Below are positions 13,163 to 56,780 of a DNA stretch of 64,000 nucleotides, piece after piece. Made by a program: the position numbers and the translations under genes. Source of the DNA: Escherichia coli (GTDB taxonomy: Bacteria; Pseudomonadota; Gammaproteobacteria; Enterobacterales; Enterobacteriaceae); the NCBI RefSeq assembly GCF_017348835.2, contig NZ_CP071375.1; one strand, given 5' to 3'. Numbering within the stretch: position 1 is the stretch's first letter; the number at the start of each line of letters is the position of its first letter. Under the pieces are notes generated by a model, which saw nothing but the letters and a program-made list of their open reading frames with translations, searched no databases and had not been told where the DNA came from.

Positions 13163-13489
13163 ATGACTAAAAATACTCGTTTTTCCCCCGAAGTCCGTCA
13201 GCGGGCGATTCGTATGGTTCTGGAAAGTCAGGATGAATATGACTCACAATGGGCGACAATTTGTTCCATTGCTCCAAAGATTGGCTGTACGCCGGAGACT
13301 CTGCGTGTCTGGGTTCGCCAGCATGAGCGGGATACCGGGGGCGGTGATGGCGGGCTCACCACCGCTGAACGTCAGCGTCTGAAAGAGCTGGAACGTGAAA
13401 ATCGTGAACTGCGCCGCAGTAACGATATCCTTCGCCAGGCTTCCGCTTATTTTGCGAAGGCGGAGTTCGACCGCCTCTGGAAAAAATGA
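13163..13489 (+). CDS. IS629-like transposase OrfA (helix-turn-helix / leucine-zipper part)
   Basis: 108 aa [26 protein letters not shown]...; recognised as IS3-family (IS629/IS1203 group) OrfA. Confidence 0.9.
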
Positions 13490-14376
13490 TGCCACTGCTG
13501 GATAAGCTGCGTGAGCAGTACGGGGTCGGACCGCTATGCAGCGAACTGCATATTGCCCCGTCAACGTATTACCATTGTCAGCAACAGCGACATCATCCGG
13601 ATAAACGCAGTGCCCGTGCGCAGCACGATGACTGGCTGAAGAAAGAGATACAGCGCGTATACGATGAAAATCACCAGGTATACGGTGTGCGTAAAGTCTG
13701 GCGTCAGTTGTTACGGGAAGGTATCAGAGTGGCCAGATGCACTGTGGCACGTCTCATGGCAGTTATGGGACTTGCCGGTGTTCTCCGGGGTAAAAAGGTC
13801 CGCACTACCGTCAGCCGGAAAGCCGTTGCCGCATGCGACCGCGTAAACCGTCAGTTCGTGGCAGAACGTCCAGACCAGTTGTGGGTGGCTGATTTTACCT
13901 GGGTAAGCACATGGCAGGGCTTCGTTTATGTGGCGTTCATCATTGATGTGTTCGCCGGATACATCGTGGGATGGCAGGTCTCATCATCCATGGAAACAAC
14001 ATTCGTGCTGGATGCACTGGAGCAGGCGTTGTGGGCCCGTCGGCCGTCCGGCACAATCCATCACAGTGATAAAGGTTCTCAGTATGTATCGCTGGCCTAC
14101 ACGCAGCGGCTTAAGGAAGCCGGATTACTGGCATCAACAGGGAGTACTGGCGACTCGTATGACAACGCGATGGCGGAGAGCATCAATGGTCTTTACAAAG
14201 CGGAGGTAATACACCGTAAGAGCTGGAAAAACCGGACAGAAGTGGAACTGGCCACACTCACGTGGGTGGACTGGTATAACAATCGACGATTGCTGGAAAG
14301 GCTGGGCCATACTCCCCCGGCAGAAGCAGAAAAAGCTTATTATGCTTCCATCGGAAACGATGATCTGGCAGCCTGA
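13486..14376 (+). CDS. IS629-like transposase OrfB (DDE catalytic part), in the -1 frame relative to OrfA
   Basis: 296 aa ORF with DDE-integrase features (HHSDKGSQY..., conserved acidic residues), overlapping orfA by 4 nt (ATGA). Confidence 0.9.
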
Positions 14377-24399: not shown

Positions 24400-24505
24400 C
24401 ACGCCAGATGCGGCGTGAACGCCTTATTCGACCTACAAAACTATGCAAATTCAATACATTGCAGGAGTCGAATAGGCCTGACAGGCGTAGCACGTCAGAC
24501 GGTGT
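24400..24505. repeat. REP / BIME-like palindromic repeats between nadE and cho (boundaries approximate)
   Basis: Two oppositely oriented units resembling the REP consensus (GCCAGATGCGGCGTGAACGCCTTATTCGACCTACA and GTCGAATAGGCCTGACAGGCGTAGCACGTCAGACGG). Confidence 0.5.
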
Positions 24506-40538: not shown

Positions 40539-41846
40539 ATGAAACGTGTTTCTCAAATGACCGCGCTGGCAATGGCTTTAGGGCTGGCTTGCGCTTCTTC
40601 GTGGGCCGCTGAACTGGCGAAGCCTCTTACACTTGACCAGCTTCAACAACAAAATGGCAAAGCGATAGATACTCGCCCCAGCGCGTTTTATAACGGCTGG
40701 CCACAAACCTTAAATGGCCCTTCTGGTCATGAACCTGCCGCCTTAAACCTCTCTGCTAGCTGGCTTGACAAAATGAGCACCGAACAGCTAAACGCGTGGA
40801 TCAAGCAACATAACCTGAAAGCCGATGCCCCGGTGGCGCTGTACGGTAATGGCAAAGATGTCGACGCCGTCAAAACGCGACTGCAAAAAGCAGGTTTTAC
40901 GCATATCTCCATTCTGAGTGACGCGCTAAGCGAACCTTCCCGTCTGCAAAAACTGCCGCATTTTGAGCAGCTGGTTTATCCGCAATGGCTGCACGACCTG
41001 CAACAAGGTAAAGAGGTTACGGCGAAACCTGCCGGTGACTGGAAAGTCATTGAAGCGGCCTGGGGCGCTCCTAAGCTTTACCTTATCAGCCATATTCCCG
41101 GCGCTGACTACATCGATACCAACGAAGTGGAAAGTGAACCGCTGTGGAACAAAGTTTCTGATGAACAACTAAAAGCGATGCTGGCAAAACACGGCATTCG
41201 CCATGACACCACGGTCATTCTGTATGGGCGTGACGTATACGCTGCAGCGCGTGTGGCGCAGATTATGCTTTATGCCGGCGTGAAAGATGTCCGCCTGCTG
41301 GATGGCGGCTGGCAAACCTGGTCCGACGCGGGACTGCCCGTTGAGCGCGGAACGCCACCGAAAGTGAAAGCGGAACCGGATTTCGGCGTGAAGATCCCGG
41401 CACAACCGCAACTGATGCTCGATATGGAACAGGCCCGTGGACTGCTGCATCGCCAGGATGCATCGCTGGTGAGCATTCGTTCGTGGCCAGAATTTATCGG
41501 TACGACCAGCGGTTACAGCTATATTAAACCAAAAGGTGAAATAGCCGGAGCACGTTGGGGACACGCTGGTAGCGACTCGACGCATATGGAAGATTTCCAT
41601 AACCCGGATGGCACCATGCGTAGCGCCGATGATATTACCGCTATGTGGAAAGCATGGAATATCAAACCAGATCAGCAAGTTTCATTCTACTGCGGCACCG
41701 GCTGGCGCGCGTCCGAAACCTTTATGTACGCACGAGCAATGGGCTGGAATAACGTCTCCGTTTACGACGGCGGCTGGTACGAATGGAGCAGCGATCCAAA
41801 AAATCCGGTAGCAACCGGTGAACGCGGCCCGGACAGCAGCAAATAA
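40539..41846 (+). CDS. ynjE: Periplasmic multi-rhodanese-domain sulfurtransferase
   Basis: 435 aa protein from the ATG at 40539 (MKRVSQMTALAMALGLACASSWA...), with signal peptide and a C-terminal rhodanese active-site Cys (CGTGWRA). Confidence 0.9.
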   Translation: MKRVSQMTALAMALGLACASSWAAELAKPLTLDQLQQQNGKAIDTRPSAFYNGWPQTLNGPSGHEPAALNLSASWLDKMSTEQLNAWIKQHNLKADAPVALYGNGKDVDAVKTRLQKAGFTHISILSDALSEPSRLQKLPHFEQLVYPQWLHDLQQGKEVTAKPAGDWKVIEAAWGAPKLYLISHIPGADYIDTNEVESEPLWNKVSDEQLKAMLAKHGIRHDTTVILYGRDVYAAARVAQIMLYAGVKDVRLLDGGWQTWSDAGLPVERGTPPKVKAEPDFGVKIPAQPQLMLDMEQARGLLHRQDASLVSIRSWPEFIGTTSGYSYIKPKGEIAGARWGHAGSDSTHMEDFHNPDGTMRSADDITAMWKAWNIKPDQQVSFYCGTGWRASETFMYARAMGWNNVSVYDGGWYEWSSDPKNPVATGERGPDSSK

Positions 41847-41854
41847 CATTGCAA

Positions 41855-42481
41855 TTACTGACGCTGGAGCGACTTCAGCGTCAGATACCCACTCCACACC
41901 CGCGTAAAGGTCGTCATCCAGCACAACGCACCAAATACCCACGCAAACAACGGAAAACAGGTCGGAAAGAGGCAACTCAGAACAAACAGCAAAATCGTCT
42001 CGCTGCCTTCGGTTAACCCGCCCAGATAATAAAACGATTTATGCGCATAACCGGGATTATCAATCTGATGTTTCGCCGCCAGCGCAGCAAAAGCGAGAAA
42101 ACTGCTACCCGTGCCGATAAACGCAAACAGCAGCCAGCCGCCTGCCAGGGCGTTTTGCTGCGGTGCGGCGAGGATAAACCCAAAAGGCACCAGCGCGTAA
42201 AAAAGAAAATCGAGAAAAATATCAAGAAAGCCGCCCGCGTCGGTAAGCCCTCTGCGCCGCGCCAGCGCACCGTCCAGACCATCAAGCAGCCTGTTCAACA
42301 AAATGACGACTAGCGCCGCCAGATACCAGCCCAGCGCCAGAAACGGCAGAGCCAGCACGCCGATGGCAAATCCCACTAATGTTAAACCATCTGGCGTAAT
42401 GCCCGGTTTATCAAGAACCCGCACGCACTGATGCAACAACGGTTTAATCCGGGGATGAAGATGGCGGTCTAGCACAGGCAC
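41855..42481 (-). CDS. ynjF: CDP-alcohol phosphatidyltransferase-family membrane protein
   Basis: 208 aa ORF with the motif D-G-x2-A-R (LDGLDGALARRRG); recognised as YnjF. My reading of the exact start codon from the sequence text was inconsistent by 2 nt, so track coordinates are kept. Confidence 0.8.
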   Translation of the reverse strand: MPVLDRHLHPRIKPLLHQCVRVLDKPGITPDGLTLVGFAIGVLALPFLALGWYLAALVVILLNRLLDGLDGALARRRGLTDAGGFLDIFLDFLFYALVPFGFILAAPQQNALAGGWLLFAFIGTGSSFLAFAALAAKHQIDNPGYAHKSFYYLGGLTEGSETILLFVLSCLFPTCFPLFAWVFGALCWMTTFTRVWSGYLTLKSLQRQ

Positions 42482-42561
42482 TCCTTAAATATAAAGCCTT
42501 TCTGATTGAGCAACAGTGCGGATATTATGGCATTTTTCGCTTATCTGCCCGTGTGTAATTT

Positions 42562-42969
42562 ATGAAAATGATTGAAGTTGTTGCCGCCATCATTGAACGT
42601 GATGGCAAAATTTTACTCGCGCAACGCCCCGCCCAGCGCGATCAGGCGGGATTATGGGAGTTTGCCGGTGGTAAAGTCGAGCTGGATGAAAGCCAGCAGC
42701 AGGCGCTGGTGCGTGAGTTAAACGAAGAATTGGGCATCGAAGCAACTGTGGGTGAGTATGTTGCCAGCCATCAGCGAGAAGTTTCGGGGCGGATTATCCA
42801 TCTTCATGCCTGGCACGTACCCGACTTCCACGGGACGTTACAGGCACATGAACATCAGGCGCTGGTCTGGTGCTCACCTGAAGAGGCGCTGCAATATCCG
42901 CTGGCCCCTGCTGACATTCCACTATTAGAGGCGTTTATGGCTTTACGCGCCGCCAGACCAGCGGATTAG
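42562..42969 (+). CDS. nudG: Nudix hydrolase (CTP / 5-methyl-dCTP pyrophosphohydrolase)
   Basis: 135 aa ORF with the Nudix box (GGKVELDESQQQALVRELNEELGI); recognised as NudG. Confidence 0.9.
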   Translation: MKMIEVVAAIIERDGKILLAQRPAQRDQAGLWEFAGGKVELDESQQQALVRELNEELGIEATVGEYVASHQREVSGRIIHLHAWHVPDFHGTLQAHEHQALVWCSPEEALQYPLAPADIPLLEAFMALRAARPAD

Positions 42970-43207
42970 TGCTAAGGGTTTTGTCATCACGCTGGCATTG
43001 CAGCAGTATTCCCTCGGCTTTAATTACCGCTCCTTCAGAATAATTTTTATCCTGATAAACGCAGCACTGAGTACAGGGCTGCGCTGACTGCCCGCCTGAA
43101 CTGAACACTTCTGGCGGTACGTTTACCTCCACGTCCGGACGATAATGCGGGTTAGCCAGTGCAATTAATGGAAATGCTAATACTACGGCGAACAATGCTC
43201 GACTCAC
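42935..43207 (-). CDS. ynjH: DUF1496-family secreted small protein
   Basis: 90 aa ORF with signal peptide; recognised as YnjH; its 3' end overlaps the nudG 3' end by 35 bp (convergent). Confidence 0.8.
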   Translation of the reverse strand: MSRALFAVVLAFPLIALANPHYRPDVEVNVPPEVFSSGGQSAQPCTQCCVYQDKNYSEGAVIKAEGILLQCQRDDKTLSTNPLVWRRVKP

Positions 43208-43442
43208 AGGGAACTCCTTAACGTTATTGTCTCTGCTACTGATAACGGTAGCCGGGTGGCAAAACTTTAGCGTCTGAGTTATCGCATTTGGTTATGAGAT
43301 TACTCTCGTTATTAATTTGCTTTCCTGGGTCATTTTTTTCTTGCTTACCGTCACATTCTTGATGGTATAGTCGAAAACTGCAAAAGCACATCACATAAAC
43401 AACATAAGCACAATCGTATTAATATATAAGGGTTTTATATCT

Positions 43443-44786
43443 ATGGATCAGACATATTCTCTGGAGTCATTCCTCAACCATGTCCAAAAGCGCGACCCGA
43501 ATCAAACCGAGTTCGCGCAAGCCGTTCGTGAAGTAATGACCACACTCTGGCCTTTTCTTGAACAAAATCCAAAATATCGCCAGATGTCATTACTGGAGCG
43601 TCTGGTTGAACCGGAGCGCGTGATCCAGTTTCGCGTGGTATGGGTTGATGATCGCAATCAGGTACAGGTCAACCGTGCATGGCGTGTGCAGTTCAGCTCT
43701 GCCATCGGCCCGTACAAAGGCGGTATGCGTTTCCATCCGTCAGTTAACCTCTCCATTCTTAAATTCCTCGGCTTCGAACAAACCTTCAAAAATGCCCTGA
43801 CTACTCTGCCGATGGGCGGTGGTAAAGGCGGCAGCGATTTCGACCCGAAAGGTAAAAGCGAAGGCGAAGTGATGCGTTTCTGCCAGGCGCTGATGACTGA
43901 ACTGTATCGCCACCTGGGCGCGGATACCGACGTTCCGGCAGGTGATATCGGCGTTGGTGGTCGTGAAGTCGGCTTTATGGCGGGGATGATGAAAAAGCTC
44001 TCCAACAATACCGCCTGCGTCTTCACCGGTAAGGGCCTTTCATTTGGCGGCAGTCTTATTCGCCCGGAAGCTACCGGCTACGGTCTGGTTTATTTCACAG
44101 AAGCAATGCTAAAACGCCACGGTATGGGTTTTGAAGGGATGCGCGTTTCCGTTTCTGGCTCCGGCAACGTCGCCCAGTACGCTATCGAAAAAGCGATGGA
44201 ATTTGGTGCTCGTGTGATCACTGCGTCAGACTCCAGCGGCACTGTAGTTGATGAAAGCGGATTCACGAAAGAGAAGCTGGCACGTCTTATCGAAATCAAA
44301 GCCAGCCGCGATGGTCGAGTGGCAGATTACGCCAAAGAATTTGGTCTGGTCTATCTCGAAGGCCAACAGCCGTGGTCTGTACCGGTTGATATCGCCCTGC
44401 CTTGCGCCACCCAGAACGAACTGGATGTTGACGCCGCGCATCAGCTTATCGCCAATGGCGTTAAAGCCGTCGCCGAAGGGGCAAATATGCCGACCACCAT
44501 CGAAGCGACTGAACTGTTCCAGCAGGCAGGCGTACTGTTTGCACCGGGTAAAGCGGCTAATGCTGGCGGTGTAGCAACATCGGGCCTGGAAATGGCACAA
44601 AACGCTGCGCGCCTGGGCTGGAAAGCCGAGAAAGTTGACGCACGTTTGCATCACATCATGCTTGATATCCACCATGCCTGTGTTGAGCATGGTGGTGAAG
44701 GTGAGCAAACCAACTACGTGCAGGGCGCGAACATTGCCGGTTTTGTGAAGGTTGCCGATGCGATGCTGGCGCAGGGTGTGATTTAA
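43443..44786 (+). CDS. gdhA: NADP-specific glutamate dehydrogenase
   Basis: 447 aa ORF recognised as GdhA (MDQTYSLESFLNHVQKRDPNQTEFAQAV...); Glu/Leu/Phe/Val dehydrogenase family. Confidence 0.97.
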   Translation: MDQTYSLESFLNHVQKRDPNQTEFAQAVREVMTTLWPFLEQNPKYRQMSLLERLVEPERVIQFRVVWVDDRNQVQVNRAWRVQFSSAIGPYKGGMRFHPSVNLSILKFLGFEQTFKNALTTLPMGGGKGGSDFDPKGKSEGEVMRFCQALMTELYRHLGADTDVPAGDIGVGGREVGFMAGMMKKLSNNTACVFTGKGLSFGGSLIRPEATGYGLVYFTEAMLKRHGMGFEGMRVSVSGSGNVAQYAIEKAMEFGARVITASDSSGTVVDESGFTKEKLARLIEIKASRDGRVADYAKEFGLVYLEGQQPWSVPVDIALPCATQNELDVDAAHQLIANGVKAVAEGANMPTTIEATELFQQAGVLFAPGKAANAGGVATSGLEMAQNAARLGWKAEKVDARLHHIMLDIHHACVEHGGEGEQTNYVQGANIAGFVKVADAMLAQGVI

Positions 44787-44795
44787 GTTGTAAAT

Positions 44796-44890
44796 GCCTG
44801 ATGGCGCTACGCTTATCAGGCCTACAAATGGGCACAATTCATTGCAGTTACGTTCTAATGTAGGCCGGGCAAGCGCAGCGCCCCCGGCAA
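44796..44890. repeat. REP / BIME palindromic repeats downstream of gdhA (boundaries approximate)
   Basis: GCCTGATGGCGCTACGCTTATCAGGCCTACA followed by an inverted TGTAGGCCGGGCAAGCGCAGCGCCCCCGGCA unit; typical REP consensus. Confidence 0.55.
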
Positions 44891-44902
44891 AATTTCAGGC
44901 GT

Positions 44903-45943
44903 TTATGAGTATTTAACGGATGATGCTCCCCAGGGAACATTTCTTATGGGCCAACGGCATTTCTTACTGTAGTGCTCCCAAAACTGCTTGTCGTAACGAT
45001 AACACGCTTCAAGTTCAGCATCCGTTAACTTTCTGCGATAGCAGCAGATATGCCAGTAAAGAAATCCCATTAGACTATTTTTTTGATAATCTTCTTCGCT
45101 TTCGAACAACTCGTGCGCCTTTCGAGAAGCAAGCATTATATAATGCCAGGCCAGTTCTTCTTCAATTGTCCCGTTTTGAAAAGCTGTGCTTGATATCGAG
45201 ATCATCCATGATAATTCCGCCGCCCATATTAGCTTCGCCGAGGATTTACCGGAGCGATTATTAGCGCAATCAGAGATATAGTCTGAGGGAAAAACAGCAA
45301 ATTTATTCAACAAGGCGATAACCTGCTCTGGGGCTTCCTCCATGTTTGCTTTAAAGGTATTGGCTCCATGGTCGCCAGAAAGAAAATGCTCCATTAAGGC
45401 ACAATAACTTTCGCTATCTTCGATACCCCATTGATTCTCTAAAGACTCGCGTCTTTTACTGATGATATCGATCGAGTCAAAAGGAAGCACATGATATTGG
45501 AAGGTATCTTTGCCAGGTTCAGGCTTTCGCGGCCAGAACTCTAGCGTTTCAGACCATTGCTTATGATAGAATCGATAAGGTGCGATCAATTGTAGCGCCT
45601 GTAACTTCTCGATACTGAGCGGCTCAATACCTTTAGCCTGATAATAATGCAGTTGTTCTTTTTTTGCTTTAAAACCGGCCCGAACAATAAGCCCCATCAT
45701 AATTAATAGATAAAGAAAAGAGCATCCCGCGGTAATCAGGCCTCTTTCATTCAAACCGTTGGATGTTATCGCTGCGAATACAAACATTACAGCGACAACA
45801 CATGTTAAATAACCCCCCCACTTACAAAGCAGCATGGCCTTATTTTCTTTAATCATCCGTTCAAAATTACTATTAAATATTTCCCAGCCATTAAAAGAAT
45901 ACTTCTCGCTCCCAGGATGGTTTTGTAATAAAACTTTTTTCAT
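44903..45943 (-). CDS. ynjI: DUF1266-family inner-membrane protein YnjI
   Basis: Track ORF of 367 aa; the internal ATG at 45943 gives the 346 aa protein MKKVLLQNHPGSEKYSF... recognised as YnjI. Confidence 0.8.
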   Translation of the reverse strand: MKKVLLQNHPGSEKYSFNGWEIFNSNFERMIKENKAMLLCKWGGYLTCVVAVMFVFAAITSNGLNERGLITAGCSFLYLLIMMGLIVRAGFKAKKEQLHYYQAKGIEPLSIEKLQALQLIAPYRFYHKQWSETLEFWPRKPEPGKDTFQYHVLPFDSIDIISKRRESLENQWGIEDSESYCALMEHFLSGDHGANTFKANMEEAPEQVIALLNKFAVFPSDYISDCANNRSGKSSAKLIWAAELSWMISISSTAFQNGTIEEELAWHYIMLASRKAHELFESEEDYQKNSLMGFLYWHICCYRRKLTDAELEACYRYDKQFWEHYSKKCRWPIRNVPWGASSVKYS

Positions 45944-46070
45944 CACATTCCCTGTTATTACATACTTTAGAGGCGATAATTTTATCCATGCAAAAAAAAT
46001 ATCCAACGAATTTTCTTGATCCGCTGGATATTTCAGAATATGACTCGAATAGCACGAAAGATTCGCTCGC

Positions 46071-48032
46071 TTACGCTATCGCCCCGCTTCCGGCTTCATC
46101 TGCTGGCGGACTTTTTTTCGCACTACGTTTACGCGGTGCAGCCTTTTTCTTATCAGCACTGCCACCACTGCCCGGAGCCACAATGCCGCGAAACTGCCGC
46201 ACCGGAGTACGTTTGGCTTGATCAATAAGCTGATATAGCGTCCCCACCAGCGGCTGCATAAAGTCCTGATAGCGACACTGCTTTTCGCTGATTTGCGTCA
46301 GCACCGATTCCCAGTGCGCGGTCATGTCCGGTCGCGTAGCCATTTCTGGCAGCGAATGGAATAACGCTTTTCCGGCGTCGGTGGAGTGGATATAGCGCCC
46401 TTTTTTGGTCAGGAAACCACGCTTGAACAACAGTTCAATAATCCCGGCACGGGTTGCTTCTGTCCCCAGACCATCGGTCGCACGAAGGATCTTTTTCAGA
46501 TCTTTGTCCTGCACAAAGCGCGCGATCCCGGTCATTGCCGAAAGCAGTGTTGCATCGGTAAAATGGCGCGGCGGCTGGGTTTGCCGCTCTACCACTTCAC
46601 CTTTTTCACACAGCAACTCATCGCCTTTCGCCACCACAGGCAATGGCGTACCGTCGTTTTCTTCATCGCGCTCTTTGCTGCCTAACAGCGTGCGCCAGCC
46701 TGCTTCAGCAAGAAAACGCGCTTTAGCGACAAATTTGCCTTTGGCAATGTCCAGTTCGATAACACACTTGCGGAACACCGCATCCGGGCAGAACTGCATC
46801 AAGTACTGACGGGCAATCAGGTTATAGACCTTCGCTTCGTTCTCCGTCAGGTTGATCGCAGAACTCCGTGCGGTCGGAATGATGGCGTGGTGCGCATCGA
46901 CCTTTTTGTCATCCCAACAGCGGTTGCGTATATCTGGATCTACCACTGGCTGCGGCAACAGATCTGGTGCATGAACGCTGATGGCATTCATCACCGCGTG
47001 GCGTCCGGCAAAATGTTCTTCTGGCAAATAGCGACAATCGGAACGCGGATAAGTGATTAGCTTGTGCGTTTCGTACAGCTTCTGGCAGATATCAAGCACG
47101 TTCTGCGCGCTCAGACCAAAGCGTTTTGCCGCTTCAATCTGCAACGCCGAAAGCGAAAACGGCAGCGGCGCGGATTCTGATTCCCGTTTATCGTTATAGC
47201 TGGTGACAATAGCCGGTTGACCACTAATGCGGTTAACCACATGCTCCGCCAGTGGACGATGTAACAAGCGCCCTTCTTCATCCTGGTACGGTTCACACGC
47301 TTCGCTCGGTTGCCAGATAGCGGTAAACCGCTCATCGGCAGGTGTCACGATATGTGCTTTGACTTCAAAGAAGTCTTTCGCCACGAAGTTTTCAATCTCT
47401 TCATCGCGGCGCACCACCAGCCCGAGCACGGGTGTCTGTACGCGTCCCACGGAAAGTACGCCCTGATAACCGGCATTGCGACCGAGAATGGTATACGCAC
47501 GGGTCATATTGATGCCGTACAGCCAGTCGGCACGCGCTCGCGCCAGCGCAGAAACGCACAATGGCACAAACTCACTGTTGGACCGAAGACGGTCGATTGC
47601 CCGCTCAACCGCCTGCGGGTTCAGGTCGTTTATCAAGCAACGCTGCACCTGCTGGCGCTTTTCCGGTGCCAGTTGCAGATAGTCCAGCACTTCATCCACC
47701 AGCAGTTGCCCTTCACGATCCGGGTCCCCGGCGTGAACGATTTCGCTGGCTTCATGCAGGAACCGTTTGATGACGTTAAGTTGTTTGGTCACGGAGGGTC
47801 GGGGCTGTAATTGCCACTTTTCCGGGACAATCGGCAAATCCGCAAGATTCCAGCGCGCATAGCGGCTGTCGTAGGCGTCTGGCTGCGCCTGCTCAAGCAG
47901 GTGACCGATACACCAGGTCACCACCTGACCATTACCGCACTCGATAAAGCCATCGCCTTTCCGGTGCGGTTTGGGCAGGACATCAGCAATGGCGCGCGCC
48001 AGACTCGGTTTTTCGGCAATAAACAACCGCAT
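46071..48032 (-). CDS. topB: DNA topoisomerase III
   Basis: Track ORF of 672 aa; the ATG at 48032 gives the 653 aa protein [21 protein letters not shown]... recognised as TopB (type IA topoisomerase, TOPRIM N-terminus). Confidence 0.95.
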
Positions 48033-48036
48033 TGAA

Positions 48037-49080
48037 TTAACGAATCTCAACCATGGCACGACCGCCGCGCGCTGGCACCAGTTCGCCAATCGCCGTCAGT
48101 TCAATGCCAAACTCGGCGGCTGTAGCTTTAACCTCATTTTCTGCTTCCGGCATGACCGCCAGCAGCAAACCGCCAGAAGTTTGCGGATCGCACAGCAAAT
48201 CGCGCACTTCACGCGGCATTTCACCCATCAGATGACCGTAGCTGGCAAAGTTACGTTCGGTGCCGCCAGGCACTGCGCCCAACTTAATGTACTCTTCAAC
48301 CCCCGGCAATTTTGGGATCGCGTCATAGTCAACGCGCGCCTGCACACCTGCGCCCTGACACATTTCGCTCAAATGGCCCAGCAGACCAAAACCAGTAACG
48401 TCGGTCATCGCTTTTACGCCTTCGATGTTGGCAAAGGACGCGCCTGCGATGTTCATCCGGCACATCACTTCCGTCGCCAGTCCCTGATGTTCTGGTTTCA
48501 GCAGTGATTTTTTCTCAGCCGTGGTAAGAACGCCGATCCCCAGCGGTTTCGTCAGGAACAGTTTGCATCCGGCTTGTGCGGTACTGTTTTTCTTCACCCG
48601 CTCGGTCGGTACGATCCCCGTTACCGCCAGACCAAAAATCGGCTCCGGCGCATCGATGGAGTGACCGCCAGCCAGCGCAATACCCGCCTGACGGCATGCA
48701 TAGCGTCCACCTTCGGTTACTTCGCGGGCAATTTCCGGGGAAAGTTTGTTAATCGGCCAGCCGAGGATCGCAATCGCCATAATCGGTTTGCCCCCCATCG
48801 CGAAGATATCGCTGATGGCGTTAGTCGCCGCAATGCGGCCAAAATCGAAAGGATTATCAACGATCGGCATAAAGAAGTCGGTGGTACTGATAACGCTGGT
48901 GCCATTGCCCAGATCGTACACCGCCGCATCGTCGCGGGTTTCATTACCCACAAGCAAATTCGGATCAACAAACTTCGCCTGCTCACTGTGCAGGATGGTT
49001 TCCAACACTTTTGGGGAAATTTTACAGCCGCAACCAGCTCCGTGGCTGTATTGGGTCAAACGAATCGAGTTCTCGCTCAT
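48037..49080 (-). CDS. selD: Selenide, water dikinase (selenophosphate synthetase)
   Basis: 347 aa protein from [23 protein letters not shown]...; recognised as SelD with active-site Cys-17 motif. Its stop lies 4 nt upstream of the topB start (operon). Confidence 0.95.
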
Positions 49081-49196
49081 GGACATCTCCTGTCAATGCA
49101 ATCCGGGTATGGTAACCCTCATTCCGTGAAGTGATAAGTGAGAGTGTCTGAATTCCTGCGCCTTTGCTCACAATCCAGACAGTTTCGCGACAATTA

Positions 49197-49748
49197 TCAG
49201 AAATAAGTTACAAACGGCGTCGGGTCCGGGACGTTTATCGACGTAGATGCTTTCAGCTGCGGCGTGCCGAGGTAGAGAAAACCGACAATTTTATCCTGCT
49301 CACGGCAACCGAATGCTTCACGCACTACCGGACTTTCAGTTAATGCGCCACTGCGCCAGATGCCGCCAAATCCCTGGGCAACGGCTGCCATTTGCATCGC
49401 CATGACCGCGCATCCGGCAGACATTTCCTGTTCCCATCGCGGGACTTTATGATTTTCTTCGCATTTCGCCACCACCGTGATGATGAGCGGTGCGCGGAAC
49501 GGCGCATTACGGGCTTTGTCGATAGCTTTGTCATCACTACCGGCAGCAATCGCCCCCTGTTCCAGTACGGCGCTGAAACGCTCGCGCCCTTCCCCTTCAA
49601 TCACAAAAAAATGCCACGGTTGCATGGACTTATGGTCTGGCGCGCGCATACCCGCACGCAGGATGTTTTGCAGTTGTTCACCCGTTGGTGCGGGTTCAGC
49701 CAGGCGGGAGGCGCTACGGCGATTGATCAATAGTTCGAGTGCATCCAT
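49197..49748 (-). CDS. ydjA: NAD(P)H nitroreductase-family protein
   Basis: 183 aa ORF recognised as YdjA. Confidence 0.9.
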
Positions 49749-49908
49749 TTGATTAACTCCTGTCGTGATATTTATTCACAAAATTAACACGAGAGTGGAT
49801 TTTGTTACAGCACAGTCCGCAATTCCTGCTGACAAGTGCCGGTTGGGTCATTACGATAACCACATCTATTGCGCCTGTGACAGGTGTGACCTTAAGTTGG
49901 GAGAATAC

Positions 49909-51765
49909 ATGCGAACCCTTTGGCGATTTATTGCCGGATTTTTTAAATGGACGTGGCGTCTGCTGAATTTCGTCCGTGAAATGGTACTTAACCTGTTCTT
50001 TATTTTTCTCGTGCTGGTTGGTGTGGGGATCTGGATGCAGGTCAGTGGTGGTGATTCGAAAGAAACGGCCAGTCGTGGCGCACTGCTGCTGGACATTTCT
50101 GGTGTGATCGTCGATAAACCCGACAGTTCTCAGCGGTTTAGTAAATTAAGCCGCCAGCTGCTTGGTGCCAGTTCCGATCGTCTGCAGGAAAACTCACTGT
50201 TTGATATCGTCAACACCATTCGCCAGGCGAAGGACGACCGCAATATCACCGGTATCGTGATGGATCTGAAAAACTTCGCAGGCGGCGACCAGCCGTCTAT
50301 GCAGTACATCGGCAAAGCCCTGAAAGAGTTTCGTGACAGCGGGAAACCGGTTTATGCCGTTGGCGAGAACTACAGCCAGGGGCAATATTATCTCGCCAGT
50401 TTCGCCAATAAAATTTGGCTGTCACCGCAAGGCGTGGTTGATCTGCACGGTTTTGCTACCAACGGTCTGTACTACAAATCGTTGCTGGATAAGCTGAAAG
50501 TTTCCACCCATGTGTTCCGTGTGGGTACGTATAAATCTGCCGTTGAACCATTTATTCGTGATGATATGTCACCGGCAGCCCGCGAAGCTGACAGCCGCTG
50601 GATTGGTGAGCTGTGGCAAAACTATCTGAATACTGTTGCCGCTAACCGGCAGATCCCTGCTCAGCAGGTATTCCCTGGCGCGCAAGGGTTGCTTGAGAGT
50701 TTAACCAAAACCGGTGGCGATACCGCGAAATATGCACTGGAAAACAAGCTGGTCGATGCACTGGCATCGAGTGCCGAAATCGAAAAAGCTCTGACCAAAG
50801 AGTTCGGCTGGAGTAAGACTGATAAAAATTATCGCGCCATCAGTTATTACGATTACGCATTGAAAACGCCGGCAGATACCGGTGACAGCATCGGTGTCGT
50901 CTTCGCTAATGGCGCAATTATGGATGGCGAGGAAACTCAGGGGAATGTTGGCGGTGATACCACTGCGGCACAAATCCGCGACGCTCGCCTTGACCCGAAA
51001 GTGAAAGCGATTGTCCTGCGTGTTAATAGCCCAGGCGGCAGCGTTACCGCGTCTGAAGTGATTCGCGCTGAACTGGCAGCAGCCCGGGCAGCGGGTAAGC
51101 CTGTGGTTGTATCGATGGGCGGCATGGCGGCATCTGGTGGTTACTGGATTTCCACGCCAGCTAATTACATTGTGGCTAACCCCAGCACCCTGACCGGTTC
51201 TATTGGTATCTTCGGCGTGATCACCACCGTAGAAAATAGTCTGGATTCGATTGGTGTTCATACTGATGGTGTCTCAACTTCACCGCTGGCAGATGTTTCT
51301 ATCACCAGGGCACTGCCGCCGGAAGCGCAGCAGATGATGCAGTTAAGCATTGAGAATGGCTATAAACGCTTTATCACGCTGGTTGCTGATGCGCGTCATT
51401 CGACGCCGGAGCAGATTGATAAAATCGCCCAGGGCCACGTCTGGACCGGTCAGGATGCAAAAGCTAACGGGCTGGTCGATAGTCTCGGGGATTTCGATGA
51501 TGCGGTCGCCAAAGCAGCAGAGCTGGCAAAAGTGAAACAGTGGCATCTGGAATATTACGTTGATGAACCGACCTTCTTCGACAAAGTGATGGACAACATG
51601 TCTGGTTCTGTCCGGGCAATGTTGCCAGATGCGTTCCAGGCCATGTTACCTGCACCGCTGGCCTCGGTAGCCTCTACCGTTAAAAGTGAAAGCGACAAGC
51701 TGGCGGCGTTTAACGACCCACAAAACCGTTATGCGTTTTGCCTGACCTGCGCCAACGTGCGTTAA
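49909..51765 (+). CDS. sppA: Signal peptide peptidase A (protease IV)
   Basis: Track ORF of 666 aa; the ATG at 49909 (GGGA Shine-Dalgarno upstream) gives the 618 aa protein [18 protein letters not shown]... recognised as SppA. Confidence 0.93.
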
Positions 51766-51918
51766 GTCTTGTACTGAGTGGCCGACAGATCGTCGGCCAT
51801 ATTTTTAATCCTCTTCCCGCTGTCTCGCCCCATATTTCCTTATCCGCATAGTATCAGGTGCGCTCCCCCTGCCTCACGTATATACTTTTGCTCTTTCGAT
51901 ATCATTCATATCAATATC

Positions 51919-52935
51919 ATGCAAAAGAAATCAATTTACGTTGCCTACACGGGCGGGACCATCGGGATGCAGCGTTCCGAGCAGGGTTATATACCGGTGT
52001 CAGGTCATCTACAACGCCAACTGGCGCTGATGCCGGAATTCCATCGCCCGGAGATGCCTGATTTCACCATTCATGAATATACGCCGCTGATGGATTCTTC
52101 AGATATGACGCCGGAAGACTGGCAGCATATTGCTGAAGATATTAAAGCGCACTATGACGACTATGATGGTTTTGTCATTCTGCACGGCACCGATACGATG
52201 GCATATACCGCCTCTGCGCTGTCGTTCATGCTCGAGAATCTCGGTAAACCGGTCATTGTGACAGGGTCACAAATCCCGCTGGCTGAGTTACGCTCTGACG
52301 GACAAATTAATCTGCTGAATGCGTTGTACGTTGCGGCGAATTATCCGATCAACGAAGTAACGCTCTTTTTCAATAACCGATTGTATCGCGGCAACCGCAC
52401 TACCAAAGCCCATGCCGATGGTTTTGATGCGTTTGCCTCTCCAAACCTTCCTCCGTTACTGGAAGCAGGTATCCATATTCGTCGTTTGAATACGCCACCC
52501 GCCCCGCACGGTGAAGGGGAATTAATCGTTCATCCAATCACCCCACAACCAATTGGCGTAGTGACGATTTATCCAGGGATTTCTGCTGACGTCGTGCGCA
52601 ATTTTCTGTGCCAACCGGTGAAAGCATTGATTCTGCGCTCCTATGGCGTGGGTAATGCGCCACAAAACAAAGCCTTCCTGCAGGAATTACAAGAAGCCAG
52701 CGATCGCGGTATTGTGGTGGTCAACCTGACACAATGTATGTCCGGTAAAGTGAACATGGGTGGTTATGCCACCGGTAACGCCCTCGCCCATGCCGGCGTA
52801 ATTGGCGGTGCAGATATGACTGTAGAAGCCACGCTAACCAAACTGCATTACCTGCTTAGCCAGGAACTGGATACTGAAACCATTCGCAAGGCCATGAGCC
52901 AAAACCTGCGCGGCGAACTGACGCCGGATGATTAA
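51919..52935 (+). CDS. ansA: Cytoplasmic L-asparaginase I
   Basis: Track ORF of 385 aa; the ATG at 51919 gives the 338 aa protein MQKKSIYVAYTGGTIGMQ... recognised as AnsA. Confidence 0.95.
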   Translation: MQKKSIYVAYTGGTIGMQRSEQGYIPVSGHLQRQLALMPEFHRPEMPDFTIHEYTPLMDSSDMTPEDWQHIAEDIKAHYDDYDGFVILHGTDTMAYTASALSFMLENLGKPVIVTGSQIPLAELRSDGQINLLNALYVAANYPINEVTLFFNNRLYRGNRTTKAHADGFDAFASPNLPPLLEAGIHIRRLNTPPAPHGEGELIVHPITPQPIGVVTIYPGISADVVRNFLCQPVKALILRSYGVGNAPQNKAFLQELQEASDRGIVVVNLTQCMSGKVNMGGYATGNALAHAGVIGGADMTVEATLTKLHYLLSQELDTETIRKAMSQNLRGELTPDD

Positions 52936-52945
52936 GGAGACTGTA

Positions 52946-53587
52946 ATGCCCCCTCGCGCCCTGTTACTGGTCGATTTACAAAATGATTTCTGTGCTGGTG
53001 GCGCGCTCGCCGTGCCGGAAGGTGACAGTACGGTGGATGTCGCTAACCGCCTGATTGACTGGTGCCTGTCGCGCGGTGAAGCGGTTATCGCCAGTCAGGA
53101 CTGGCACCCAGCGAATCACGGCAGTTTCGCCAGTCAGCACTGTGTAGAGCCTTATACGCCAGGTCAACTCGACGGTTTGCCACAAACCTTCTGGCCAGAT
53201 CACTGTGTGCAGAACAGTGAAGGCGCACAATTACATCCGTTACTGAACCAAAAAGCGATCGCAGCGGTGTTCCATAAAGGCGAAAATCCTTTAGTTGACA
53301 GTTACAGTGCCTTTTTTGATAACGGCCGTCGGCAGAAAACCTCTCTCGATGACTGGTTACGCGATCATGAAATCGATGAATTGATCGTTATGGGCCTGGC
53401 TACTGACTATTGCGTGAAGTTTACCGTGCTGGACGCGTTACAGTTAGGTTATAAGGTAAACGTGATTACCGATGGTTGTCGTGGCGTGAATATCCAGCCC
53501 CAGGACAGTGCGCACGCGTTTATGGAGATGTCAGCAGCTGGGGCAACGCTATATACGCTGGCAGACTGGGAAGAGACGCAGGGGTAA
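52946..53587 (+). CDS. pncA: Nicotinamidase / pyrazinamidase
   Basis: 213 aa protein MPPRALLLVDLQNDFCAGG...; recognised as PncA (isochorismatase-like fold). Confidence 0.93.
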   Translation: MPPRALLLVDLQNDFCAGGALAVPEGDSTVDVANRLIDWCLSRGEAVIASQDWHPANHGSFASQHCVEPYTPGQLDGLPQTFWPDHCVQNSEGAQLHPLLNQKAIAAVFHKGENPLVDSYSAFFDNGRRQKTSLDDWLRDHEIDELIVMGLATDYCVKFTVLDALQLGYKVNVITDGCRGVNIQPQDSAHAFMEMSAAGATLYTLADWEETQG

Positions 53588-53605
53588 TATTAGTTGAATT
53601 CATCT

Positions 53606-53640
53606 CTGGCCTACATTTCCTCAATGACATTGTAGGCCAG
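53606..53640. other. Perfect 10-bp inverted repeat (hairpin) in the pncA-yeaC junction
   Basis: CTGGCCTACA - 15 nt loop - TGTAGGCCAG, 19 nt after the pncA stop; GGCCTAC arms resemble REP half-sites; no U-tract follows. Confidence 0.45.
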
Positions 53641-53747
53641 ATAATACTTGTCAGTGTTGCATTTAACCTACTTGCAGCTAAAACACGACGTCCGAACAAG
53701 TATATTTGCCCTCCCTTAATAACAGGCTTAAATACTAGATAACTCAT

Positions 53748-54020
53748 TCACTTAAACATGGCAATAGGCTTTGCTGAGATACCAAAATCTTCTTTTAACT
53801 GCTGTTTGCTCTTCATGACCATCTGACCATTTGTGTCAATTGTCATATGCTGTGCTTCGGTATTATGGCGGGCTTGCCACAGCATCACCAGTTGCAGGCA
53901 GTTCTCTTTTTGTTCCTCGGTCAACGCAACGCCATCAGGCCATTTCCCCAGTTCAACGGCGGTCGACAAACGCTGGTATACCTCAGGCGTCATGCTGTTG
54001 ATAATGTCATCAAGATCCAT
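53748..54020 (-). CDS. yeaC: DUF1315-family protein YeaC
   Basis: Track ORF of 105 aa; the internal ATG at 54020 gives the 90 aa protein MDLDDIINSMTPEVYQRL... recognised as YeaC. Confidence 0.8.
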   Translation of the reverse strand: MDLDDIINSMTPEVYQRLSTAVELGKWPDGVALTEEQKENCLQLVMLWQARHNTEAQHMTIDTNGQMVMKSKQQLKEDFGISAKPIAMFK

Positions 54021-54061
54021 AATTTTTCCGCTCCTGTGGAATAAGTTGCTGAATCGTTTTT

Positions 54062-54475
54062 TCAACCGTTGATTTCTTCGCCGTTTTCGCCATCGGTAAA
54101 GCGTAAAGAGGCAGAGTTAACACAATAACGTTCGCCCGTTGGCTGCGGCCCGTCGGGGAAGACATGCCCCAGATGGGCATCACAGTTACCGCAACGAATT
54201 TCTATGCGCTGCATTCCATGTGACAAGTCTTTGATATAACGAATGGATTCTTCACTTACCGGTTCGTAGAAACTGGGCCAGCCACAGCCGGAATCATACT
54301 TTGTTTGGGAATGAAACAGCGGGGCATCGCAGATCAAACAGTGATATACGCCGTCACGCTTGTTATGCAGTAAACGACCCGTAAATGGCGGCTCTGTCCC
54401 ATGATTCTGCGTCACGTAAAACTGCATCTCGGACAAATTTTTTTTCAGTTCTTCTGCCGAAGGTTTATTAGCCAT
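54062..54475 (-). CDS. msrB: Peptide methionine-(R)-sulfoxide reductase
   Basis: 137 aa protein [21 protein letters not shown]... with two CxxC zinc motifs and the catalytic Cys near the C-terminus; recognised as MsrB. Confidence 0.9.
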
Positions 54476-54804
54476 TTGCTCACATCTCACTTTAATCGTG
54501 CTCACATTACGCGACTGATTCTAACAAAATATTAACACCAACTGGCAAAATTTTGTCCTAAACTTGATCTCGACGAAATGGCTGCACCTAAATCGTGATG
54601 AAAATCACATTTTTATCGTAATTGCCCTTTAAAATTCGGGGCGCCGACCCCATGTGGTCTCAAGCCCAAAGGAAGAGTGAGGCGAGTCAGTCGCGTAATG
54701 CTTAGGCACAGGATTGATTTGTCGCAATGATTGACACGATTCCGCTTGACGCTGCGTAAGGTTTTTGTAATTTTACAGGCAACCTTTTATTCACTAACAA
54801 ATAG

Positions 54805-55812
<1,008 letters not shown>

Positions 55813-55833
55813 GTTGAGATGACACTGTGATCT

Positions 55834-55864
55834 AAAAAGAGCGACTTCGGTCGCTCTTTTTTTT
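55834..55864 (+). terminator. Rho-independent terminator of gapA
   Basis: AAAAAGAGCGAC-TTCG-GTCGCTC followed by 9 T, 22 nt after the gapA stop. Confidence 0.8.
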
Positions 55865-55895
55865 ACCTGATAAAATGAAGTTAAAGGACTGCGTC

Positions 55896-56780
55896 ATGAT
55901 TAAGAAAATTTTTGCCCTTCCGGTCATCGAACAAATCTCCCCTGTCCTCTCCCGTCGTAAACTGGATGAACTGGACCTCATTGTAGTCGATCATCCCCAG
56001 GTAAAAGCCTCTTTTGCATTACAGGGCGCACACCTTCTCTCGTGGAAACCTGCGGGTGAAGAAGAAGTTCTGTGGTTGAGCAACAACACACCGTTCAAAA
56101 ATGGCGTCGCCATTCGCGGTGGCGTACCGGTTTGCTGGCCGTGGTTTGGTCCGGCGGCAGAACGAGGCCTGCCTGCGCACGGTTTTGCCCGCAACCTGCC
56201 GTGGACGCTGAAATCACATCGTGAAGATGCTGATGGCGTAGCGCTGACTTTTGAATTGACACAAAGCGAAGAGACGAAAAAATTCTGGCCTCACGACTTT
56301 ACGCTGTTAGCGCATTTCCGCGTGGGTAAAACCTGTGAAATCGATCTTGAAGCACACGGCGAATTTGAAACCACCTCTGCCCTGCATACCTACTTTAACG
56401 TGGGTGATATCGCTAAGGTAAGCGTCAGTGGGCTGGGCGATCGCTTCATTGATAAAGTAAATGACGCGAAAGAAGATGTACTGACCGACGGTATTCAGAC
56501 CTTCCCTGACCGTACCGATCGCGTGTATCTGAATCCGCAAGATTGCAGCGTGATTAATGATGAAGCGCTGAATCGTATTATCGCCGTAGGCCACCAGCAT
56601 CATCTGAACGTTGTAGGCTGGAACCCGGGACCGGCGCTTTCAGTTAGCATGGGCGATATGCCGGACGATGGCTACAAGACCTTTGTTTGTGTAGAAACGG
56701 CTTACGCTTCAGAAACGCAAAAAGTGACCAAAGAAAAACCTGCACATCTGGCGCAATCCATTCGCGTTGCGAAACGTTAA
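55896..56780 (+). CDS. yeaD: Glucose-6-phosphate 1-epimerase (aldose 1-epimerase family)
   Basis: Track ORF of 301 aa; the ATG at 55896 gives the 294 aa protein MIKKIFALPVIEQISPV... recognised as YeaD. Confidence 0.9.
   Translation: MIKKIFALPVIEQISPVLSRRKLDELDLIVVDHPQVKASFALQGAHLLSWKPAGEEEVLWLSNNTPFKNGVAIRGGVPVCWPWFGPAAERGLPAHGFARNLPWTLKSHREDADGVALTFELTQSEETKKFWPHDFTLLAHFRVGKTCEIDLEAHGEFETTSALHTYFNVGDIAKVSVSGLGDRFIDKVNDAKEDVLTDGIQTFPDRTDRVYLNPQDCSVINDEALNRIIAVGHQHHLNVVGWNPGPALSVSMGDMPDDGYKTFVCVETAYASETQKVTKEKPAHLAQSIRVAKR

Follow-up and report, generated by a model that had tools for sequence, protein, structure and literature searches.

The window, a 64-kb stretch of E. coli DNA analysed as a whole, carries the gene order sppA, ansA, pncA, yeaC, msrB, gapA, yeaD, yeaE, and a spacer of 160 bp (53588-53747) separates the stop codons of the convergent genes pncA and yeaC. 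Both genes are so named in the annotation of the identical strain PE164. Their products share 98.6% (PncA) and 96.7% (YeaC) amino acid identity with the K-12 proteins, and the last 100 nt of pncA contain a single difference from K-12. The features of the locus are as follows.

52946-53587, plus strand: pncA (nicotinamidase/pyrazinamidase), left flank of the slot, stop codon ending at 53587
53588-53747, no strand: 160-bp spacer representing the ydj slot in its empty form, uninterrupted in 1089 of the 5426 complete E. coli genomes searched
53605-53641, no strand: hairpin with perfect 11-nt arms and a 15-nt loop, formed by head-to-head REP heads (GGCCTAC / GTAGGCC)
53632-53668, plus strand: decayed REP body after the right hairpin arm, from a search for GTAGGCCGGATAAGGCG-like sites and alignment to K-12, E. 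whittamii and Escherichia sp. E1V33
53664-53705, no strand: segment of about 42 nt specific to the empty class, homologous to the empty spacer of L007 (a species-level relative described below); K-12 has ~9.07 kb in its place
53706-53747, minus strand: remnant of a hairpin downstream of yeaC, 3' arm eroded, from alignment to K-12, Escherichia sp. MOD1-EC7003 (L003), E. whittamii (L005) and E1V33 (L008)
53748-54020, minus strand: yeaC, right flank of the slot, stop codon ending at 53748

In the K-12 strain BW25113, pncA is followed by ydjE, ydjF, ydjG, ydjH, ydjI, ydjJ, ydjK and ydjL, all on the minus strand, and only then by yeaC, the interval from stop codon to stop codon being 9173 bp. The eight genes encode two MFS transporters, a DeoR regulator, a PfkB kinase, a class II aldolase and three oxidoreductases, and the block has a G+C content of 46.4% compared with 51.6% for its left flank. 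Megablast of the window against the K-12 stretch returned two collinear blocks (41313-53592 and 53738-56579) from which only the ydj block was missing, and no Ydj orthologue is encoded within the 64-kb window. The preliminary description had placed the pncA stop at 53587 and the convergent yeaC stop at 53748 with a 160-bp gap, and had stated that ydjE-ydjL lies between these genes in K-12 but not here. These coordinates were confirmed and so was the K-12 gene order: pncA does not directly adjoin yeaC in K-12, where eight ydj genes intervene, and the window, collinear with K-12 on both sides, lacks just these genes (about 9.1 kb).

The pncA-proximal hairpin and the limits of homology

The arms of the hairpin, TCTGGCCTACA (53605-53615) and TGTAGGCCAGA (53631-53641), are 100% complementary; the perfect inverted repeat described at first as 10 bp is real, and its arms are one base longer, at 11 nt. 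Folded as RNA, the element reached -18.9 kcal/mol (z = -5.0), a value matched by none of 200 shuffled sequences. The stem was kept in all six Escherichia alleles examined, both empty and ydj-positive and drawn from four Escherichia species, with a loop that varies, so the hairpin is not a chance structure. A stem that does not vary provides no covariation evidence for or against pairing. The early suggestion that the arms are REP-like proved right, in that they carry the GTAGGCC head found in three other REPs of the window. A relaxed search of the whole window for the REP start GTAGGCCGGATAAGGCG returned exactly four sites, at 24436 (minus), 44825 (minus), 44860 (plus) and 53632 (plus).

The arrangement resembles REP/BIME elements in lying outside genes between two convergent genes, in carrying the conserved GTAG-containing head at the unit end on both arms, and in having a body of REP length after the right arm; its heads face each other as they do in the window REP pair 44825/44860. 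It differs from them in that the left REP is reduced to its head and in that the imperfect internal palindrome of ~35 nt was not found, complementarity having been lost in the body at 53632-53668. The minimum free energy fold pairs the two REP heads and not an internal REP stem, the stable stem thus being built from two heads instead of a single REP. Part of the internal palindrome is kept, and better preserved, in the K-12 and E. whittamii versions. The hairpin is therefore what remains of a head-to-head REP pair. The arrangement that has decayed at 53605-53668 is present in intact form in the head-to-head pair at 44790-44900 of the window. Elsewhere in the window, the stretch 24420-24479 combines an intact REP on the minus strand (head at 24436) with a directly adjoining Rfam match to the sRNA ES036/CssrF (24437-24479, plus strand, 42.9 bits).

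An intrinsic (Rho-independent) terminator was considered for the hairpin and rejected, as the stem is not followed by a T-run on either strand and no terminator-like site occurs on either strand of 53400-53900. A promoter scan of the spacer found nothing, and Rfam gave no match with an E value of 1 or less in 53450-53850. The REP hairpin probably acts as a stabiliser of, or barrier at, the 3' end of pncA mRNA. It may serve yeaC likewise in the empty allele, where yeaC's own hairpin is eroded. Nothing suggests that the spacer has a role beyond separating two convergent genes.

K-12 has this hairpin too, right after pncA (L001:12297-12329, in a spacer that folds at -29 kcal/mol as a whole). Starting at the pncA stop, the window is homologous to the K-12 pncA–ydjE spacer, with an 11-nt indel, as far as about 53663; homology to the ydj-positive allele picks up again at about 53706. 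The additional K-12 segment corresponds to about L001:12353-21420, or roughly 9.07 kb. The left limit of homology falls about 22 nt to the right of the hairpin, inside the decayed REP body, and the hairpin is present in ydj-positive alleles too; the proposal that it marks the scar or breakpoint was therefore not borne out. On the yeaC side, K-12, MOD1-EC7003, E. whittamii and E1V33 keep a hairpin, ATCCCCTT...AAGGGGAT, which folds at -22.2 kcal/mol in K-12, whereas the minus strand of the window shows no excess structure (z +0.5). The allele-specific ~50 nt of the window and ~75 nt of L007 were compared by Smith-Waterman, on both strands, with the ydj blocks of K-12, E. whittamii (L005), E1V33 (L008) and C. 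amalonaticus (L017); all scores stayed within the shuffle range, giving no ydj remnant. Around the K-12 block itself, no flanking direct repeat beyond a 7-mer was found.

Distribution of the empty junction

A 701-nt probe across the junction was searched against 5426 complete E. coli genomes. It was contiguous in 1089 of them (20%) and matched the remaining genomes as separate pncA and yeaC parts, and sequence of the K-12 ydj block was found in 4336 of the 5426. The two counts are complementary, so ydj is not present at another locus where the junction is empty. Alignment of the junction to K-12 and to an E. coli panel, which the preliminary description had proposed as a check, thereby separated 1089 empty genomes from 4336 with the block and set the boundaries at ~53663 and ~53706. 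Identity to the 160-bp spacer reaches 99% or more in 945 genomes and lies at 95-99% in 142, and the complete PE164 genome matches the 701-nt stretch over the junction at 100%. Strains of O111:H8, O103:H2 and O112ab:H8 are among the empty genomes. A second empty haplotype, 95.6% identical and with a left flank closest to a B2 strain, occurs in O78:H4 APEC, APEC O2-211 and many other poultry isolates, which we take to be the ST117 / phylogroup G lineage. Here and below, the phylogroups of database strains are those indicated by serotype knowledge and one paper. In a third empty form, seen in strain BS-04 (L084 5965-6036), only 72 bp lie between pncA and yeaC; this spacer belongs to the allele class of the window and has lost 88 internal nt, including the right hairpin arm. 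The 160-bp junction is also matched at 133455-133614 of NZ_CP074995.1, a 166,865-bp record of E. coli strain 8479 that is counted as a plasmid but probably represents a piece of the chromosome or a contig assigned wrongly.

The ydj-less pncA–yeaC junction is a common accessory-operon polymorphism that has already been reported. Treating ydjE–ydjL as one unit, a survey of gene content (PMC9602453, Microbiol Spectr 2022) found ydj to be mostly absent from phylogroup B1, the prevalence of ydjI being 96.6% in A, 29.9% in B1, 100% in B2, 50% in C, 100% in D and 100% in E; ydjH has also been listed among 'true deletions' in some strains (PMC12595684). The window agrees with this picture in that the eight genes are absent as a unit. 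Absence is concentrated in B1 and partly in C, and its overall frequency fits the 20% of genomes with an empty junction. Both studies score gene presence only; neither describes the junction, the split into two diverged classes of allele or the occurrence of a counterpart in other Escherichia species. What is added here is the exact boundaries, the identification of the hairpin as a shared REP remnant, and evidence for an old empty allele as opposed to a fresh scar. The junction can serve as a clean marker for ydj-negative E. coli, that is, most of B1 (including O26, O103 and O111-type lineages) and the poultry-associated lineage.

To place the locus in a wider context, 80 species-level loci were fetched by YeaC and their genes were mapped by tblastn. 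Across these loci the pncA–yeaC interval is a variable slot throughout the Enterobacteriaceae and a family-wide hot spot. It is empty in Salmonella arizonae and diarizonae, Kosakonia, Phytobacter, several Enterobacter and Escherichia sp. MOD1-EC7003. The ydj genes occupy it alone, in the K-12 orientation, in E. whittamii, Escherichia sp. E1V33, one C. amalonaticus-like species and Intestinirhabdus, and together with a further gene of ~2 kb in the C. freundii complex, the K. oxytoca complex and R. planticola. The ~2-kb gene stands alone in K. pneumoniae and others, where it appears as a GH18 chitinase-like ORF, and three Kluyvera loci (L036, L079 and L080) hold ~8 kb of other cargo. In K. pneumoniae ATCC 13883 the GH18 chitinase-like ORF lies at L050 10879-11646 (minus strand), and the same spacing recurs in many Citrobacter, Klebsiella and Enterobacter loci. 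The E. albertii contig ends 449 nt past yeaC, with a tail similar to the long spacer between ydjL and yeaC in E. whittamii; this similarity suggests, short of proof, that E. albertii is ydj-positive. The junction of MOD1-EC7003 (L003 10271-10378) joins a different pncA-proximal hairpin, AAATGCCCG...CGGGCATTT, to the K-12-type yeaC hairpin, a difference implying that ydj-less sites arose at least twice independently within the genus.

Nucleotide identity of ydj between K-12 and other Escherichia is about 85-92%, and between K-12 and Citrobacter/Klebsiella 74-83%; msrB, yeaC and pncA behave alike. Such parallel divergence argues for long residence of the ydj block in this slot and for its repeated loss. 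When the C. freundii group is compared with the K. oxytoca group, ydj is slightly more similar than its flanks; this excess, with the lower G+C of the block, makes some lateral movement of ydj possible. Examined as a candidate mobile genomic island, the K-12 block contained neither an integrase or transposase gene nor a tRNA gene, and the longest repeat shared by its boundaries was 7 nt.

Age and origin of the empty allele

Spacer identities were calculated over 64-76 nt of unambiguously homologous sequence, the spacers compared being short (64-160 nt). Alongside E. coli, the set comprised two empty and three full alleles of other Escherichia, with E. fergusonii, E. marmotae, E. ruysiae and Shigella left out. 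The ydj-positive alleles of E. coli (A, B1, B2 and one more) are 94-100% identical to one another, and the two empty haplotypes are 96% identical. Between the empty and ydj-positive classes within E. coli, identity drops to 73-78%, a level similar to the 71-83% seen between Escherichia species. The flanking genes of the window, in contrast, differ from K-12 by 0.7% on each side, and no rise in flank divergence of the kind that would mark a recently imported tract was seen, with 0-4 differences per 100 nt within 1 kb either side. A counterpart of the window spacer is the empty spacer of L007, a species representative that is labelled E. coli SCPM-O-B-8794 and is, with flanks 8-11% diverged, a species-level relative. 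The 160-bp spacer aligns with it end to end at 76% identity, the allele-specific middle included, with a Smith-Waterman score of 115 against a shuffle maximum of 27.

We conclude, with a probability of roughly 0.7, that the window carries an old empty allele of the ydjE–ydjL presence/absence polymorphism instead of a recent deletion, and that the hairpin is not a breakpoint. The preliminary description had left a deletion scar open, and it is true that the left limit of homology (~53663) falls in REP-derived sequence, that REPs are recombination substrates, and that other lineages are losing ydj or have it disrupted, through IS insertions, a frameshift and an IS1 deletion. Even so, loss of ydjE–ydjL from a K-12-like ancestor in phylogroup B1 by recombination at or near the REP hairpin, with the 160 bp as what was left over, is improbable. 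A spacer divergence of 22-27% beside a flank divergence of 0.7% cannot be explained by recent deletion from any sampled E. coli ydj-positive allele; against the sampled A, B1 and B2 alleles taken together, the flanks differ by 0.7-3.6%. The ~42 nt in the middle of the spacer have no source in any ydj block tested, a matching empty spacer exists in another Escherichia species (L007), the hairpin is intact in empty and ydj-positive alleles alike, and the junction contains neither a ydj remnant nor an IS. A recent loss from a K-12-like allele, with 73-78% identity in the shared spacer and 99.3% in the flanks, is thus unsupported. The appearance of a genuine recent deletion is illustrated by strain KTa005 (L085 4093-5413), in which most of ydj is likewise gone from between pncA and yeaC; there, unlike in the window, an IS1 copy, a 567-nt ydjE stump and a K-12-type spacer are kept, and the strain represents an independent, recent, IS1-associated route to the ydj-negative genotype.

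The opposite reading, also put forward initially, is that of an ancestral empty site: the ancestors of K-12-like E. coli acquired the block by insertion into this spacer, and the window never received it. pncA directly adjoins yeaC in Salmonella, Kosakonia, Phytobacter and several Enterobacter, the K-12 block has a lower G+C content than its left flank, and the empty allele is free of ydj remnants. We nevertheless consider a pristine site unlikely. The ydj genes occupy the matching slot, in the matching orientation, in E. whittamii, Escherichia sp. E1V33, Citrobacter, the Klebsiella oxytoca group, Raoultella planticola and Intestinirhabdus; they diverge in step with msrB, yeaC and pncA, as would be expected from long vertical residence with repeated loss; and they come without mobility genes, tRNA or flanking repeats. 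When the Escherichia empty spacer was compared with the empty spacers of 22 other Enterobacteriaceae, nothing scored above shuffles except the REP head, so that homology between the empty spacers of Escherichia and those of other genera was not detectable. The term 'ancestral empty site' was therefore too strong: the window does lack ydj, but the block, diverging with its flanks across Escherichia, Citrobacter and Klebsiella, is old here too. An assembly or sampling artefact, with the block elsewhere in the genome or collapsed in assembly, could be entertained because only 64 kb of the source genome was inspected; with the 701 nt over the junction 100% identical in the complete PE164 genome, the junction contiguous in 1089 finished genomes, and these complementary to the 4336 genomes with ydj sequence, it is hardly credible.

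The divergence pattern suggests that the empty allele is of long standing or came in from a relative long ago, and that homologous recombination, with crossovers in pncA and yeaC, has since spread it among E. coli lineages. One counter-point concerns its persistence within the species: the deep groups B2, D and E are 100% ydj-positive (PMC9602453), and parsimony on the E. coli tree for this reason favours a ydj-positive ancestor, so the empty allele may have entered later instead of having persisted. A broader version of the old-allele reading, which we put forward tentatively and hold to be possible at most, is a trans-species polymorphism. Here the empty and ydj alleles would either be older than the split of the Escherichia species or move from one species to another; both would be kept by selection that depends on the niche and acts on an orphan sugar-acid pathway, and recombination would homogenise the flanks up to the stop codons. 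The deep divergence between the alleles offers a small example of an accessory operon segregating for a long time inside a core-genome neighbourhood.

Functional context of the ydj block

The ydjE–ydjL genes form a putative sugar-acid catabolic cluster. According to PMC9602453, which draws on Huddleston & Raushel 2019, acid sugars with long chains are preferred by YdjH and YdjI, and the best YdjI substrate given there, L-glycero-L-galacto-octuluronate, is not known to be naturally abundant. The same survey associates ydj with lactic-acid resistance, an association confounded with phylogroup. The metabolic difference from K-12 that was predicted from the gene order is accordingly real at the level of genes, eight ydj genes being absent, but it translates into no concrete phenotype. 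Screens for the natural Ydj substrate could take as controls natural isolates that lack or carry ydj and are near-identical in the flanks. Decay of ydj in several ydj-positive lineages is consistent with weak or conditional selection on the pathway.

Several interruptions of the block were recorded in the course of the survey. An IS3-family transposase lies inside it in O157:H7 Z1834 and 146N4, IS30 is inserted in strain 64EVA and ISVsa5 in ET12567, and ydjK is frameshifted in USMARC-51688; L088 9823-11203 is among the loci with such decay. In the window itself, Rfam reports an ALIL pseudoknot, the IS3-family frameshift signal, at 13444-13560 (plus strand, 120 bits), which places an IS3-family insertion sequence there.
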